The notes beneath the pieces were generated by a model. That model was not told the origin of the DNA, ran no database searches, and worked only from the letters and a program-made list of their open reading frames with translations. A DNA stretch of 64,000 bases. Source: a virus. Both the position numbers and the translations under genes were made by a program. Shown here piece by piece: positions 36,748 through 60,429 of this stretch (the stretch's first letter is position 1; every line of letters starts with the position of its first letter). The stretch is taken from the IMG/VR virus record IMGVR_UViG_3300045988_154248. The stretch is one strand, 5' to 3'.

Positions 36748-36840
36748 TTCAATTCCTCCAATCTTTTAATTTATTAGTTTATCAAACCCTATCTTATTAT
36801 TCTCTGTCTTGTTGTACTAAAAAAGCAGATAACTTTTTCG

Positions 36841-37002
36841 TCACCTGCTTTCCTTAAATATTACGAAACTGCATCTCCGTATCATTTCATAATCTCTACA
36901 TCCTTTATAATTATCACACATCCAATTATAAATCTCTGTATCAGACATATTATGAAATTTTAGAATATGTTTTCTGCATTCATCTAAGATATATTCTTCC
37001 AT
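36841..37002 (-). CDS. small hypothetical protein (53 aa)
   Basis: Own call: MEEYILDECRKHILKFHNMSDTEIYNWMCDNYKGCRDYEM..; GGAGTAAAAT SD. Confidence 0.4.
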   Translation of the reverse strand: MEEYILDECRKHILKFHNMSDTEIYNWMCDNYKGCRDYEMIRRCSFVIFKESR

Positions 37003-52984: not shown

Positions 52985-54100
52985 TTATTTATTGACTTCG
53001 CTTTCCAGAATGTCAAACAACTGTGCATTACTCTTAACAGGAAATACCTTACTTTCGTAGAAAGCTGCTCCGCTACAATGTTTCTTCAAAAGATTTAATG
53101 TTTCCGTTCCGTGAATGCTTTCCATCTTCAGAAGAACATTGATATTTCGCTGTGTGAATGCATTCTTTTCTGTAGATCCGCACCAATTCAATTCTTTAAT
53201 CATAACGATTGCATGTTTAAGCGATTCAGGTCTGCGCTTTGCCATTCTTAACAGATTCATGGTTGGTGTAACTTTCCCAATAGGATTTTCTTTCCGATTC
53301 AGGTCAGCCGAGATCTGGATGTTGTATGCATCGAAAATCATTTTGAAATTAATATAATCTTCTTCGTTCGCTTCAATACCAGCTCTATACATATCACTAA
53401 CCGACATAGGTTTCCTTCCTGCCTGCTGTCCTAAGAAAACTAATACGGCCTCACACATTGTTTTACAATCAATAATCTCAACCAGAATTTTTAATTTTTC
53501 TGCTTTTCCTAACAGATTGTTTTTCATAATGAATGCAGCTAATCTATGTGCGCCATCGGCTACATATAATTTTCCATCAATAAGGAACACTTTGATCGGA
53601 TCGAATTTCGATTCATTGAAATTTTCTTCAATCTCTTTTGCCTTTACCATGTCCGTACTTCTCTGCCAGTCTGGAATATGTACAAACAGTGGGTTGATTG
53701 TTATATATTTTTTATTTCCTACTGTCAAAGGATACCGTAATGCATTGCTTACTTCCGATGTTTCCATTTCTGCATCAAAATCCCTCTGTTCATTAATCCA
53801 ATTTTCGAAATCGACTGATGTCATATAATGCCGAAATCCTTTTGCTCTTCTATATTTTTCATATGTCTTTCCCATCGAATCTGAAAAGCTGTATCCTACA
53901 TCATGAATTTCGATGTCATCTTTATTAATTTTCAGGATAAAGCACAGCTTTTTCACTTTTCCTTCCGATGGGTTACTTTTGCCTGTTTCATAATTGGAAA
54001 TTGTGTTTTCAGTCACACCGAGTTCTTTTGCAAGTGCTTTCTGTGACATGCCGGCTTTCTCTCTCATCTCTGTTAATTTTACTCCATTGATTTTACACAT
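52985..54100 (-). CDS. XRE-type HTH fused to a ParB-like N-terminal (nuclease/CTPase-fold) domain
   Basis: N-terminus LTEMREKAGMSQKALAKELGVTENTISNYETGKSNPS; mid-region PIKVFLIDGKLYVADGAHRLAAF (ParB-N core). Confidence 0.65.
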   Translation of the reverse strand: MCKINGVKLTEMREKAGMSQKALAKELGVTENTISNYETGKSNPSEGKVKKLCFILKINKDDIEIHDVGYSFSDSMGKTYEKYRRAKGFRHYMTSVDFENWINEQRDFDAEMETSEVSNALRYPLTVGNKKYITINPLFVHIPDWQRSTDMVKAKEIEENFNESKFDPIKVFLIDGKLYVADGAHRLAAFIMKNNLLGKAEKLKILVEIIDCKTMCEAVLVFLGQQAGRKPMSVSDMYRAGIEANEEDYINFKMIFDAYNIQISADLNRKENPIGKVTPTMNLLRMAKRRPESLKHAIVMIKELNWCGSTEKNAFTQRNINVLLKMESIHGTETLNLLKKHCSGAAFYESKVFPVKSNAQLFDILESEVNK

Positions 54101-57379: not shown

Positions 57380-58342
57380 TTATTTCTGTTTCTTCTGTTC
57401 AAAAGTCAGATTGCCCTTAATTTCGAACTTTCCACCCTGTTTTTTCAGGACGATTGCTTTTACAAGAACTCGTTCAAATTTCTTGTAGTTCACTGTCTTG
57501 AACAGGAATTTTCCGTTTCCGTCCTGTTCAATGTTGAAACCAGAAACAAGGGTCGCCAGGTTATTTAATTCCGTTGGGGTCATTCTGATGGAACGAGACG
57601 CAAGTACCTTATTCCCGTCCGATTTTGTGACAGAAAACCGCGAAAACAGGTTTTCCATCTCAGCGCGGAATGACAGATAAAGTTTTTTTGTATCTTCCGT
57701 TGTTTCACCTCCTGTTCGTCCTAATTCGTGACGGTAAAGCTGGGCACTCTGTAAAGGTTTTTCAAAAACCTTTTTCCAGTCCGAAACGTTGCCGGACGCA
57801 AGCGAACAGAACAGTTCAAAATGGAGCAGCTGTTTTCCAGTTCCTTTTACCTGGGCAACGTATACCGGAGAAATAATACCGGAAATTTTTTCGCACGCGT
57901 CACGCAACGCGTCACGGCGGTTAGTGAGATCCATTCTCACATCTTCTGCCGTCAGAAGAAACGCGCGGAGCTTTAAATATTCCGTACTTTCTTCCGTATC
58001 CAATTCGAATACATCACGCTTGTTTTCAAGCTCTTTTGCGCGCGCTTCAGACTTTTCAACCGTTTTCAGAAAACTTTCTAACTTGTTTTCTGAAGCGGTT
58101 TTTTCCTGTTCCATACAAGCCGCGAAAACGGCGTTTTTGTAAAGAACCGGAGTGAGAACTACACCGACAAGTGAAAGTTCATTAAAATCGGTATAAGACC
58201 GTGAGATAATCCCGTCCGAAACGAGATCGAAAACAACGCGGTTATAGACAAGCGCGGTTTCATCTACTACAAGACGAGTTCCGGAAACAAGGTTGATAGA
58301 AGCAAGTTCGTTGCGGGTTACTTTCAGAATGTTATACATCAT
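57380..58342 (-). CDS. hypothetical protein (about 320 aa, central coiled coil)
   Basis: Track frame; start at ATGATG 58342 behind AAGGAGG. A 7-bp hairpin at 58362-58380 lies just upstream. G+C clearly above the window average. Confidence 0.55.
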   Translation of the reverse strand: MMYNILKVTRNELASINLVSGTRLVVDETALVYNRVVFDLVSDGIISRSYTDFNELSLVGVVLTPVLYKNAVFAACMEQEKTASENKLESFLKTVEKSEARAKELENKRDVFELDTEESTEYLKLRAFLLTAEDVRMDLTNRRDALRDACEKISGIISPVYVAQVKGTGKQLLHFELFCSLASGNVSDWKKVFEKPLQSAQLYRHELGRTGGETTEDTKKLYLSFRAEMENLFSRFSVTKSDGNKVLASRSIRMTPTELNNLATLVSGFNIEQDGNGKFLFKTVNYKKFERVLVKAIVLKKQGGKFEIKGNLTFEQKKQK

Positions 58343-58429
58343 GGTTTTTTCCTCCTTAAATGCCGTGTACTTGACACGGCGAAACAAAATTGATAAGATA
58401 TGTATTGAAACAATTTCGGCGCTCATAAA

Positions 58430-59010
58430 CTCACGTTTTCGTCAATATTTCAAGCGGGCGACTTGAGCGCCACGACTTACGGGAAACGTCCCGCGACGTA
58501 TTTTAATGGAACACGTAAACCGAAAAGGGAGCGACTTGAGCGCCACCACTTTTTTTATTGCAATTTGTAGGGAGCGACTTGAGCGCCACCGCTACGAAAA
58601 GGTGTTTCGTTCGAATGTAGTCTGTATATCCCGTGTACAGGTGGGAAAACGCATATCATCACACGCGCCCACTTTGTTTACCACTCAAGTGCTGCTGATT
58701 TTAAGCAGATATTTGAAGACGGTTACTCGTGTTACCCGTTCGCGTACATCTCACGACGTTCGCGCGCTCAACTGGGAATAGTCCTATTCGGTATGGACTT
58801 TGTACCGGGCAAATTAGTTTGCCGAACTCATGCAAGAATAGAATGCAGATGGATTTTCCGCCATCCGCGGAGCGGTTACACGTCCGCGTAATAGATACTG
58901 AGACTAAGGTTGACAGTTACAATCCCGGGCGGTGTCCGGTATACAGAAGAAGAAACACCGCGAACGAAACGACCGTTCGCGTACCGTTTAGGCTATCACC
59001 CTTTCGGTAA
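58430..59010. other. GC-rich, hairpin-dense non-coding region (candidate large structured RNA or protein-binding array)
   Basis: No minus-strand ORF of 60 aa or more. The two plus-strand track ORFs lack an SD and are Arg/Ser/Thr-rich. GC-rich hairpins at 58480-58493, 58808-58823, 58848-58865, 58929-58961 and 58959-58981. 12-nt repeat ccgttcgcgtac at 58736 and 58973. Confidence 0.5.
58456..58590 (+). repeat. three direct repeats, core GCGACTTGAGCGCCAC
   Basis: 58527-58547 and 58570-58590 are identical 21-mers GGGAGCGACTTGAGCGCCACC; 58456-58473 shares the 16-nt core. Core-to-core spacing is 73 and 43 nt. Partial inverted copies (ccactcaagtgc at ~58681, gcgcgctcaactg at ~58761) lie downstream. 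Confidence 0.8.
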
Positions 59011-59022
59011 TTGTATTATCTC

Positions 59023-59208
59023 ATAAACATGCATAGATTGCAAGTGTTTTTTAGTGAAATTATACACAAATTATAAACATGCATAGAACTATTTTTAGTG
59101 CATATTGCTAGTTGATTAATTGTCGTTGTGTAATATACACAATAGATGCGGTATAAGTAATAGTATTATGCAGCATATTGGCAAATAGTAATATTACACA
59201 ATAGATGC
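59023..59208 (+). repeat. two pairs of direct repeats upstream of the RHH-like gene
   Basis: ATAAACATGCATAGA at 59023-59037 and 59073-59087, each followed by TTTTTAGTG. GTAATAT(T)ACACAATAGATGC at ~59129-59149 and ~59188-59208. Confidence 0.7.
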
Positions 59209-59244
59209 AATAGTTTATTGTGCAAAGTGCTGAAAATAAAATAA

Positions 59245-59460
59245 TTGAAAGAAGGTATCATATTGTCAGAAACTAACGAGTCACAATTAAAAGCTGTCAG
59301 AAAATATAACTCGCAATGTAAAAGTGTCGCAATACGCTACACTCCAAAAGAATTATCAGAATTTGAAAGGTTAGAAAGATATATTTCAGAAAATAATGTA
59401 AATAAAGCCGAATATATTAAAAATTTAATAAAAGCAGATCTGGACAAAAAGGGCTATTGA
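59245..59460 (+). CDS. small DNA-binding-like protein, possibly ribbon-helix-helix
   Basis: ORF track 71 aa (TTG start). KSVAIRYTPKELSEFERLERYISENNVNKAEYIKNLI has a beta-strand then two-helix pattern typical of CopG/Arc-type proteins. Confidence 0.4.
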   Translation: MKEGIILSETNESQLKAVRKYNSQCKSVAIRYTPKELSEFERLERYISENNVNKAEYIKNLIKADLDKKGY

Positions 59461-59486
59461 CTGCAAAGTGTACCAGAATAGAAGGT

Positions 59487-59524
59487 TGACTATTGGTCAG
59501 TTTAGAATGACTATTGGTCAGTTT
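59487..59524 (+). repeat. two perfect 17-nt iterons TGACTATTGGTCAGTTT, 21-bp period
   Basis: 59487-59503 and 59508-59524; each contains the internal palindrome TGAC-N5-GTCA. Confidence 0.8.
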
Positions 59525-59530
59525 GTAAAT

Positions 59531-59670
59531 TAGGAATGATTACTATTATTGATTTTATGGAAATGTGAGGTTTAGTACTGGTAAACTTTTTGTTTAGTAT
59601 TTGTATATGTGGAAATTGTGGATAATGTGGAAAACTTATGTAGATAACTTGATAATAGTAATCATTCCTA
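59531..59670. repeat. 19-bp perfect inverted repeat enclosing the DnaA-box cluster
   Basis: taggaatgattactattat (59531-59549) pairs with ataatagtaatcattccta (59652-59670). Confidence 0.8.
59608..59634 (+). promoter_or_regulatory. three contiguous head-to-tail DnaA-box-like 9-mers (origin-like)
   Basis: TGTGGAAAT-TGTGGATAA-TGTGGAAAA. The middle box is the exact complement of consensus TTATCCACA; the flanking boxes differ at 2 positions each. Confidence 0.6.
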
Positions 59671-59965
59671 TTTTCGATATATAAAATTTTTACATATGAC
59701 CTTACGTCACACTTTACCACCCTTTTTCAACTTGCCACCGGAACAGCGCGCGCCATGGTCAAAAATTTTTATTTTACCAAACAATAGAAAAAATTTTATC
59801 TATTGTCAAAATATTTTAAATTGTACTGAAATTGTGTTATGCCATGTAAAATACCTGTTTTTCGGGGTAAAATGACGTTGTGATCTGTTTATTGTCTGAG
59901 TAGTCAGACGGGGGGTAGTTAAAATCAGCAAATTGTCTGAATTTTCTGAAATCTCACATAGCTGG

Positions 59966-60420
59966 TTCATCTACACACTAACTCCAAAATCCATCACTCC
60001 ACCCAATCTCCCTATCTCACCACCCTCCCATTCCACCCATCCAAAAACAATCCACATTTTACCTAATAATCAAGCCCAAAACCCCATCATATCACCATAA
60101 AACCCCATATCGTACCCCTTATCGTAAACCTCAGTAATCAAGCCTTAAAATCACTCTGCCCTTCAAATTTTACTCTCCACTTTTTCACCCTCAATCAAAA
60201 ATACCCCATATAAATTCTGGCCTCAAACGATAAACATTTTACGGATTAAAAATTGCACTCTTCCTCTCTCCTTCACTATTTCAACACTCACCTATCTAAA
60301 CCATATCATATCATCACAAATCATCCTTACTATTGATCTAAGGACAAAACAGTATTATAATCAACCTAGAATCCATTCAAACACATACACCCTATAAACT
60401 GTCCACCAATACAAGAAAAG
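59966..60420 (+). other. G-depleted, C/A-rich tract (plus strand); G-run-rich on the minus strand
   Basis: Hand count: 20 G in 450 nt (59971-60420), and a 108-nt stretch with no G at all (59966-60073). The minus strand at 60002-60038 reads GGGtggaatGGGaGGGtggtgagataGGGagattGGG. Confidence 0.85.
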
Positions 60421-60429
60421 AGGAAAATC

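Follow-up and report, generated by a model that had tools for sequence, protein, structure and literature searches.

The 64,000-nucleotide (nt) viral sequence analysed here (IMG/VR record IMGVR_UViG_3300045988_154248; hereafter the window, meaning the whole stretch) contains at positions 58343-59010 a GC-enriched non-coding block that carries three copies of a 16-mer. Comparison of this block with its homologues leads us to consider it somewhat probable that the block is a long structured minus-strand 5' leader of the gene for a 320-amino-acid (aa) protein (57380-58342, minus strand), with attenuation controlled by a countertranscript or by a factor. Since the structure is selected in the sense strand of that gene and a promoter-like site stands at its first helix, the block can be described as a structured 5' leader of approximately 666 nt (58343-59008, minus strand). 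Among the identities offered by a preliminary description of the window, a long regulatory leader of 57380-58342 therefore fits best, the more so as no convincing terminator precedes the ribosome-binding site (RBS).

Non-coding sequence continues from 58343 to 59244, between the minus-strand gene, which starts at 58342, and a small plus-strand gene starting at about 59263, and the block thus lies where transcription diverges, as had been noted from the letters alone. The minus strand carries nearly every large open reading frame (ORF) from 351 to 58342, with the block at the head of this run. The GC fraction is 0.47-0.50 in 58430-59010, compared with 0.28-0.40 on its flanks (0.28-0.30 in the AT-rich spacer to the right) and 0.25-0.40 in most of the window. 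The absence of a credible ORF was borne out by the homologues, in which the ORFs at 58506-58781 and 58729-59010 are broken by insertions and deletions, and neither has relatives. A 91-aa ORF in the block was rejected as a spurious gene whose weak PHROG matches are noise, and extension of the 320-aa frame to an in-frame upstream ATG at 58426 (a 348-aa ORF) was rejected as well, this ATG not being conserved and the insertions and deletions in the linker not being multiples of three. The impression of a hairpin-dense block also stood, with a folding energy below that of dinucleotide shuffles on both strands (z = -3.6 and -3.2), and the 12-mer CCGTTCGCGTAC does occur twice, at 58736 and 58973.

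Homologous loci were gathered from three sources: contigs encoding homologues of the protein, IMG/VR, and one metagenome scan. These yielded 15 different block sequences, which share 74-92% identity with the window and come from related metagenomic phage contigs of ~100-140 kilobases (kb). In every locus recovered the block lay directly upstream of the 320-aa gene, a strict synteny of RNA and protein, and its nucleotide conservation was about the same as that of the gene. The segment from 58343 to ~58887 was common to all loci; 58888-59010 was present in most, replaced by other sequence in one type of locus (L052, L053 and L056) and partly deleted in L055, with block sizes of 545-666 nt overall. 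In L054, the sequence that diverges most, two sites in the alignment have insertions of tens of nt. A mosaic makeup is apparent among the homologous blocks, L078 grouping with L012 in some helices and with L059 in others, which suggests frequent recombination within the phage clade.

Outside this clade the searches returned essentially nothing. Searches with blastn and tblastn of the block, the 320-aa protein and the 91-aa ORF against GenBank phages and PLSDB plasmids gave no match, a 16-mer scan of IMG/VR gave mainly single chance matches, and a motif scan of genome contigs gave zero matches. The metagenome scan returned close relatives only, plus two chance matches (L068 and L069), and profile-based locus searches added no loci. 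The distribution is very narrow, a single phage clade having been recovered across all public collections searched.

Evidence for a conserved RNA structure comes from covariation. The 15 sequences were aligned in gene-sense orientation (alignment A4) and their common fold was predicted with RNAalifold, resulting in 142 predicted pairs, 47 of which show at least one double compensatory change. Three dubious long-range pairs were then dropped, and the remaining 139 pairs in 25 helices were counted against two kinds of control, namely column shuffles and displacement of the 3' partners by 1-3 columns. Standard pairs were formed in 98.9% of the cells, compared with 91.0% in the shuffles and 30-46% in the displaced controls; 46 pairs carried compensatory changes, compared with 30.2 +/- 2.7 and 3-10, respectively; and the covariation score was 0.306, compared with 0.156 and 0.03-0.06. 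On four of five measures the observed value was reached by none of 500 shuffles. These results strongly support the earlier suggestion of a large structured RNA.

Individual helices illustrate the same point. One helix is swapped wholesale, from GGCAA/UUGCC to UCCGG/CCGGA and to CACGC/GCGUG, the hairpin CGGGA/UCCCG occurs in three different compensated variants, and GUGGG/CCCAC becomes AUCGG/CCGAU among homologues. The last of these helices had been put forward as one half of a possible pseudoknot, with coordinates that are one base off (CGTGT is at 58632-58636 and GTGGG at 58641-58645); the GTGGG/CCCAC arm is a real covarying helix, whereas the CGTGT/ACACG arm is broken at two of its five pairs in most homologues. 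The two GC-rich hairpins proposed as mutually exclusive fared unequally: 58929-58961 is not conserved, and 58959-58981 is conserved in part, its three to four outermost pairs holding while the inner pairs seen in the window do not carry over. A hairpin at 58925-58939 is conserved. The downstream segments described as partial inverted copies of the repeat core (58684-58690 and 58763-58775) show complementarity to the repeats in no more than 3 of the 15 sequences and belong to other conserved helices.

Because hairpins are symmetric and both strands fold, the strand under selection was examined only with pairs predicted on both strands. On the plus strand, A.C cells (equivalent to G.U on the minus strand) numbered 58 and G.T cells 19. 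Among pairs that switch between Watson-Crick and wobble pairing, 21 fit the minus strand only, 6 the plus strand only and 5 both (binomial p ~0.01). The bias was strongest in the core (58558-58890), at 12:2 for the minus strand, and helix H14 as it occurs in the window, L012 and L077 can form on the minus strand only, where it includes two G.U pairs that read as A.C mismatches on the plus strand. By this wobble asymmetry the aligned sequences show that the selected structure resides in RNA of the minus strand, that is, the sense strand of the 320-aa gene. In 58407-58557, where a predicted antisense RNA would overlap the leader, the bias was absent (5:4), and such a balance fits a segment obliged to fold on both strands.

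The repeats that first drew attention to the block were found as described: three copies of the 16-mer GCGACTTGAGCGCCAC at 58458, 58531 and 58574, spaced 73 and 43 nt apart. The sequence GCGACTTGAGCGCCAC occurs nowhere else in the 64 kb, even with three mismatches allowed (chance expectation 0.05). On the sense strand each 21-mer repeat amounts to a covarying stem of 4 base pairs (bp) with a 7-nt loop, CUYAAGU; in the stems G-C switches with A-U by way of G.U intermediates on the sense strand, and the loop varies only at its third base (C or U). Repeat 1 (58452-58478, minus strand) corresponds to helix 24 and contains four compensatory pairs, with the loop CUCAAGU in the window and CUUAAGU in 14 of 15 sequences. 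Repeat 3 (58570-58590, minus strand) has the loop CUCAAGU and stem pairs that exchange GC with AU and GU with AU. No further hairpin of this kind was found elsewhere in the 64-kb window.

Repeat 2 (58527-58547, minus strand) has two possible partners. It can form its own local hairpin, again with the loop CUCAAGU, or its 5' half (58537-58545) can pair, as helix H19, with an anti-repeat at 58417-58425 (minus strand; UGAGCGCCG in the sense orientation), which the preliminary description had missed. In sequence the anti-repeat is the inverted complement of a repeat's 5' stem plus the bases that open its loop; pairing of the anti-repeat with repeat 2 in the consensus fold (helices 18-20) closes a three-hairpin domain of 139 nt (58412-58550). 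This pairing is supported by G.U in the four sequences where the repeat 2 loop has U (pair 605/724), and in L054 the anti-repeat partner is changed to A, giving one double compensatory change. The local hairpin and the closing helix are mutually exclusive, and minimum-free-energy folds of the homologues pick either one. The run of A before the closing helix is, on the antisense strand, a run of T; to judge from its layout, the closing-helix arrangement resembles a bidirectional terminator with a large domain inside it.

These findings bear directly on the proposal that the repeats act as DNA, double-stranded or single-stranded, whether as iterons or as a centromere or pac array bound by a ParB-fold or another DNA-binding protein, the apparent RNA structure being incidental. 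The spacings of 73 and 43 bp in the window are near whole helical turns, and a helix-turn-helix (HTH) protein with ParB-like features (DUF6551) is encoded 4 kb away. The stems, however, are kept paired by compensatory changes within the repeats while only the loop is constant, the spacing shifts by 1-4 nt among homologues, covariation spans 25 helices and so reaches far beyond the repeats, and the wobble asymmetry is strand-specific, as expected for RNA. The ParB-bound array envisaged in the preliminary description is disfavoured by these covarying stems, drifting spacing and wobble asymmetry, and we regard a DNA role for the repeats as very improbable. Nor do the repeats form a CRISPR array, there being three copies at 73 and 43 nt with intervening sequence that is conserved and structured. 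An anti-Shine-Dalgarno role of the CUCC beside repeats 2 and 3 was rejected for lack of conservation of that sequence. Mimicry of an anticodon loop (CUCAAGU read as C32-U33-CAA-G37-U38, as in a tRNA-Leu) was likewise rejected as unsupported; the stems are only 4 bp, and tRNAs reading UUR codons carry A37.

At the downstream end of the leader, a further hairpin (58362-58380, minus strand; GCCGUGU-CAAGU-ACACGGC, helix 25) stands 4 nt before the Shine-Dalgarno sequence AAGGAGG (58357-58351), which is not sequestered in the consensus fold. The constancy of the repeat loops raises the possibility that the three repeat hairpins, and perhaps the RBS-proximal one that shares UCAAGU, are sites for an RNA-binding protein, either the 320-aa product or another phage protein, whose binding, instead of the antisense RNA, would be the decisive effector and would act through antitermination of the lambda N/boxB or Bgl/Sac ribonucleic antiterminator (RAT) kind or through a translational operator. 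The loops are constant over three paralogous copies in 15 sequences while the stems covary, UCAAGU is presented once more 4 nt before the Shine-Dalgarno sequence, the repeat 2 hairpin excludes the closing helix, terminator-like hairpins occur early in the leader, and the leader heads a run of minus-strand ORFs spanning most of the window. This account remains a minority possibility, since no RNA-binding domain was recognised in the neighbouring proteins (Pfam, PHROG and NCBIfam), the model of the 320-aa protein is coiled-coil helical and without a fold match, and the hairpin has no further copies in the 64-kb window. Furthermore, the UCAAGU of the RBS-proximal hairpin is largely explained by the TTGACA of an antisense promoter on the other strand.

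Promoter-like sites were found at both ends of the structured region. On the minus strand, TTGCAA-17-GATAAT with an upstream TG (59015-59043) has a predicted start at ~59008, coinciding with the first base of helix 1. Although this stretch is divergent in L057, TTGAAA-17-TATACT with a TG is present at the equivalent place, 5-7 nt before the first helix as in the window. Facing it on the plus strand is a convergent site overlooked in the preliminary description, TTGACA-17-TAAGAT with a TG (58371-58399, predicted start ~58406), which was the top-scoring promoter-like site in the window, L052, L057 and L080 (10-11 of 12 matches). The -10 hexamers in these four loci read TAAGAT, TATAGT, TAAAAT and TACAAT, respectively, and the TG is present in three of the four. 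At the convergent site, alignment A4 shows no variation in the -35 hexamer, in the TG or at -10 hexamer positions 1, 2 and 6, whereas the spacer and the remaining positions vary; this is the pattern expected of a promoter, which the site is predicted to be. The antisense RNA predicted to arise from it (58406-58556, plus strand) is ~150 nt long, has a fold z of -2.85 and ends at a T-run (58550-58556) that is invariant in 15 of 15 sequences and follows repeat 2 and the closing helix; the terminator scan made no call at this run. On the sense strand the long-range closing helix (H18-H20) is followed by a U-rich tract (58404-58411, minus strand), a candidate attenuator tail that is weak in the window (UUGUUUC) and comprises 4-9 U in homologues. 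Between the RNA and the 320-aa gene the scan called no terminator, nor did it yield a promoter belonging to that gene alone.

Taken together, these features suggest how the leader might work. Transcription would start at ~59008 and run through the leader into the 320-aa gene. Repeat 2 would choose between its own hairpin and the anti-repeat pairing that closes the 3' domain, and the closing helix with its U-rich tract, approximately 60 nt before the RBS, would act as an attenuator. The ~150-nt antisense RNA from the convergent promoter would present loops exactly complementary to the repeat loops, and this RNA, a loop-recognising protein, or both would set the conformation and hence the expression level of the operon. 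The repeat loops contain YUNR (CUCA or CUUA), the U-turn motif common in the recognition loops of antisense RNAs.

Two distant loci, L079 and L080, indicate which parts of this arrangement are shared more widely. They encode proteins (P0020 and P0021) that are ~30% identical to the 320-aa protein, and their layout is the same: the divergent gene is present as a homologue of 65 aa, and the AT-rich region contains operator-like repeats and, 330-380 nt upstream of the genes, a TGATATAAT promoter. Their leaders are GC-enriched (fold z = -2.5 and -4.6) and contain a helix followed by U5-6 at 60-95 nt before the start codon, as well as an RBS-proximal hairpin whose opposite strand reads TTGACA. Resemblances noticed by eye in these loci (GAATAG..CTATT and GTCTAAGG) were dropped as chance after the nhmmer and covariance-model nulls. 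On this comparison the architecture is conserved across distant loci, whereas the RNA itself is not.

Several points weigh against the reading as an attenuated leader. All 15 sequences belong to one narrow, recombining phage clade, so that the cells counted do not represent independent events. Promoters and transcript ends are predicted from matches to consensus only. The putative attenuator helix closes a multi-branched domain of 110 nt instead of a simple hairpin, its U-tract in the window is weak, and it was not called as a terminator. The leaders of L079 and L080 have no detectable sequence or model similarity to the RNA of the window by nhmmer or by the covariance model of H3-H7, the promoter and hairpin segment excepted. 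Some 25 helices and a 34-nt invariant core would seem to go far beyond the needs of known countertranscript-controlled leaders. Finally, a cis-antisense RNA alone does not appear to account for three paralogous loops staying identical, an observation that speaks for a common trans-acting factor, in the simplest case a loop-recognising protein.

The size of the RNA calls for a further alternative, in which the block encodes a free-standing non-coding RNA of the large ornate type, or an RNA acting as subunit or scaffold of a particle that includes the co-transcribed 320-aa protein. Its transcription ahead of the gene would then be incidental and comparable with the position of omega-RNAs and retron RNAs, which lie 5' of the ORFs of their partners. 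The RNA measures 545-666 nt, contains ~25 helices and an invariant segment of 34-35 nt with the near-palindrome GAAUAGGACUAUUC, and is enriched in GC within an AT-rich genome; the U-rich tract after the 3' domain could release an RNA of ~600 nt. RNA and protein are syntenic in every recovered locus, and the distant protein homologues likewise stand behind structured leaders. A terminator between RNA and gene and a separate gene promoter are what such an RNA would lack here according to the scan, the distant leaders are dissimilar in sequence and by model where an obligatory ribonucleoprotein partner should show some likeness, and the protein gives no hint of nucleic-acid enzymology. We consider this account unlikely. 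A new large ornate phage RNA with a job of its own, for example a ~600-nt species released at the U-rich tract whose three identical hairpins, together with the one at the RBS, assemble several copies of the coiled-coil protein or of a host factor, or one that multimerises via GAAUAGGACUAUUC, with the antisense RNA setting its level, seems to us similarly doubtful.

With respect to known large RNAs, covariance models of Rfam 15 gave zero matches at gathering thresholds over the whole window, and at E <= 10 on 58200-59400 there were four noise matches, the best being mir-1473 at 22.5 bits against a gathering score of 95. Membership in ROOL, GOLLD or HEARO, which had been raised for the block, or in OLE thus found no support in the covariance-model check, and a riboswitch or other known class of cis-regulatory leader was set aside in the absence of a recognisable aptamer model or Rfam match. 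The block resembles ROOL, GOLLD, OLE and HEARO/omega-RNA in exceeding 500 nt, in its many covarying helices, in forming a GC-rich island in an AT-rich mobile genome and in its phage association; it differs from them in matching no covariance model, in being a 5' leader continuous with an ORF and not free-standing, and in its narrow distribution. Large ornate bacterial and phage RNAs have been studied by cryogenic electron microscopy (PMC12286853), and large catalogues of unnamed candidate structured RNAs from IMG/VR exist (PMC10690425).

Returning to the attenuated leader, one comparison is with plasmid copy-control systems. Like pT181 RNA I/II, pIP501 RNA III with CopR, and R1 CopA/CopT with CopB, the locus has a long leader before the regulated gene, a convergent promoter within the leader with a short structured antisense RNA (here predicted), loops of the YUNR type (here CUCA/CUUA in the sense and CUUG in the antisense strand), a helix and U-tract shortly before the RBS, and, at the leader promoter, operator-like repeats and the gene of a small protein. 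In contrast to these systems, this leader exceeds theirs in length by a factor of 2-6 and contains ~25 conserved helices as well as an invariant core of 34 nt; its predicted antisense RNA covers the 3' end, putative terminator included; and three hairpins share one identical loop, with an anti-repeat in addition. Additionally, the small gene is divergent and not co-directional, the downstream protein is no recognisable Rep by family or fold, and the element resides in a phage of ~125 kb.

ColE1 RNA II, RNA I and Rom, together with the RNA-based origins described in extrachromosomal mycobacteriophage prophages (PMC7157519), are alike in having a structured RNA of ~550-650 nt, a short antisense RNA with 7-nt kissing loops (here predicted), and an adjacent small accessory gene. 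The RNA I of ColE1 is complementary to the 5' end of RNA II, which is not followed by a protein gene, whereas here the RNA runs into an RBS and an ORF. A role in phage-plasmid replication, with an RNA II-like pre-primer and an RNA I-like antisense, or with a copy-control leader of a novel initiator (the 320-aa protein) and a Cop-like small protein, nonetheless has some circumstantial appeal. The small divergent protein with operator-like repeats, the long leader and the countertranscript promoter are combined in the manner of rep control regions, phage pCD1602_4 has the closest annotated relative of a window protein, the mycobacteriophage prophages provide a precedent, and three DnaA-box-like 9-mers and 17-nt direct repeats lie ~500 nt away. 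We find such a role quite improbable all the same, as the 320-aa protein is unlike any known initiator in sequence or fold, no plasmid match was found, the DnaA-box cluster is kept in only some homologous loci, and the window encodes two integrase/recombinase genes.

Phage immunity regions offer another comparison for the leader. As in P22 immI (mnt-Pant-arc-sar-ant), P1 c4/ant and lambda pL-nutL-N, a divergent small gene faces the promoter of a gene for a protein of ~300 aa, an antisense promoter lies near the gene start, and a hairpin-bearing leader heads a long early operon. The sar and c4 RNAs are 70-80 nt long and occlude the RBS, whereas the antisense RNA predicted here starts ~50 nt upstream of the Shine-Dalgarno sequence; moreover, no Rfam match to C4 or sar was obtained, and the 320-aa protein contains no ANT, KilA or Bro domain. 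The RAT antiterminators of Bgl and Sac are alike in that a hairpin (here repeat 2) shares its 5' half with a mutually exclusive terminator-like helix, and they differ in that here no CAT/PRD protein is encoded nearby, the terminator-like helix is long-range and the hairpin is present in three copies. The kind of element, a structured leader with an antisense RNA, is known, whereas its scale and its repeat/anti-repeat design are not, newness being judged against Rfam 15.

Structured bacterial and phage RNAs of more than 500 nt with such covariation are rare, and each class studied has revealed unexpected biology. The present one, from phages known from metagenomes alone, has clear boundaries, a strand that is defined, and switch elements open to testing, namely three hairpins with an identical loop, an anti-repeat and a convergent promoter-like site. 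If the regulatory reading is true, the block would be an unusually elaborate countertranscript or attenuation device for early or replication-type phage expression, and if the RNA acts on its own, it would add both a new class of large RNA and a protein family of unassigned fold. Either way it offers a way into a so far uncharacterised pair of genes, one small and divergent and the other coding for 300-320 aa, that is conserved down to ~25-30% identity.

Within the leader, several parts can be told apart. The 5' module (58888-59008, minus strand), present in part of the family, includes the covarying helices 1 and 2 and consists of a hairpin at 59009-58982, a terminator-like hairpin at 58981-58959 followed by a U-rich run, and the hairpin at 58939-58925. 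In L052, L053 and L056 an extra 69-aa HTH_26 gene (5052-5261 in L052) is present between the small divergent gene and the leader, and the module is replaced by unrelated sequence that still carries a GAACGG...CCGUUC hairpin. The core domain (58558-58887, minus strand) comprises helices H3-H17, with covariation helix by helix, and includes the invariant segment of 34-35 nt (58773-58807) that contains the near-palindrome GAAUAGGACUAUUC; the 3' domain with the closing helix lies beyond it. A covariance model of H3-H7 (R1) matched only its own site in the window, at 129 bits. Its second-best match is a minus-strand hairpin, GCAGGUGACGAAAAAGUUAUCUGC followed by UUUUU (36820-36848), which looks like an ordinary intrinsic terminator and resembles leader helix H4 (58868-58845, loop GAAAA, tail AUUCUAUUCU). 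The resemblance hints that H4 itself may act as a terminator.

The window as a whole is phage-like, with PHROG matches to nicotinamide phosphoribosyltransferase, DNA methyltransferase, tyrosine integrase and serine recombinase, and its 687-aa protein is 60% identical to one from the 132.5-kb Clostridioides phage pCD1602_4, the closest annotated relative of a window protein. The 320-aa gene is the first of the minus-strand run, with its ATG at 58342, and its product has no match in Pfam, PHROG or NCBIfam. A word-seeded search of 5.8 billion proteins returned only 18 clusters, at 75-95% identity; four further relatives, 23-32% identical, came from an exhaustive HMMER search covering 1.84 billion representatives. 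The AlphaFold model (predicted local distance difference test, pLDDT, 78.7; predicted template modelling score, pTM, 0.75) is helical with a long coiled-coil hairpin and had no significant fold match in PDB or BFVD. Matches of residues 210-265 to giant proteins were rejected as spurious, the targets being adhesins with immunoglobulin-like (Ig) repeats.

On the other side of the leader, the small divergent gene (59263-59460 within ORF 59245-59460, plus strand) has a probable TTG start at 59263 and encodes ~65 aa, for which nothing significant was found in Pfam. Homologous divergent genes of 63-65 aa adjoin the leader in L057, L052, L079 and L080, and since such a small gene stands beside every homologue of the 320-aa protein, including those of 30% identity, the two genes form a conserved pair. 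We suspect that the product is a small DNA-binding repressor. The AT-rich control region between gene and leader (59023-59208) contains two copies each of the direct repeats ATAAACATGCATAGA (59023 and 59073) and TACACAATAGATGC (59136 and 59195) together with an 11-nt inverted repeat, and the first copy of ATAAACATGCATAGA falls within the spacer of the sense promoter; these operator-like repeats are likely binding sites of the small divergent protein.

The HTH protein encoded at 52985-54100 (minus strand; 371 aa) combines an N-terminal Cro/C1-type HTH with DUF6551, is conserved in the homologous loci and has a weaker match to a ParB-like partition protein PHROG (phrog_1033, E 2.9e-6). A second gene-free gap of ~970 nt (59461-60429) separates the small divergent gene from a 172-aa gene and is conserved at 75-90% identity in nine homologous loci. 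Its left part is origin-like (59487-59674): TGACTATTGGTCAGTTT occurs twice with 21-nt spacing (59487 and 59508), and a 31-nt stretch of the minus strand contains three 9-mers resembling DnaA boxes, of which the one at 59617-59625 is a perfect TTATCCACA and those at 59626 and 59639 have one mismatch each. This cluster is flanked on its two sides by the arms of a 23-nt inverted repeat (59527-59549 and 59652-59674, 96% complementary); the cluster is kept in L056 and L059 and absent from six other loci. The right half of the gap (~59960-60400) is nearly free of G on the plus strand, with a GC skew reaching -0.85, and could serve the 172-aa gene as an unstructured C-rich leader or as a Rho-loading (rut-like) site.

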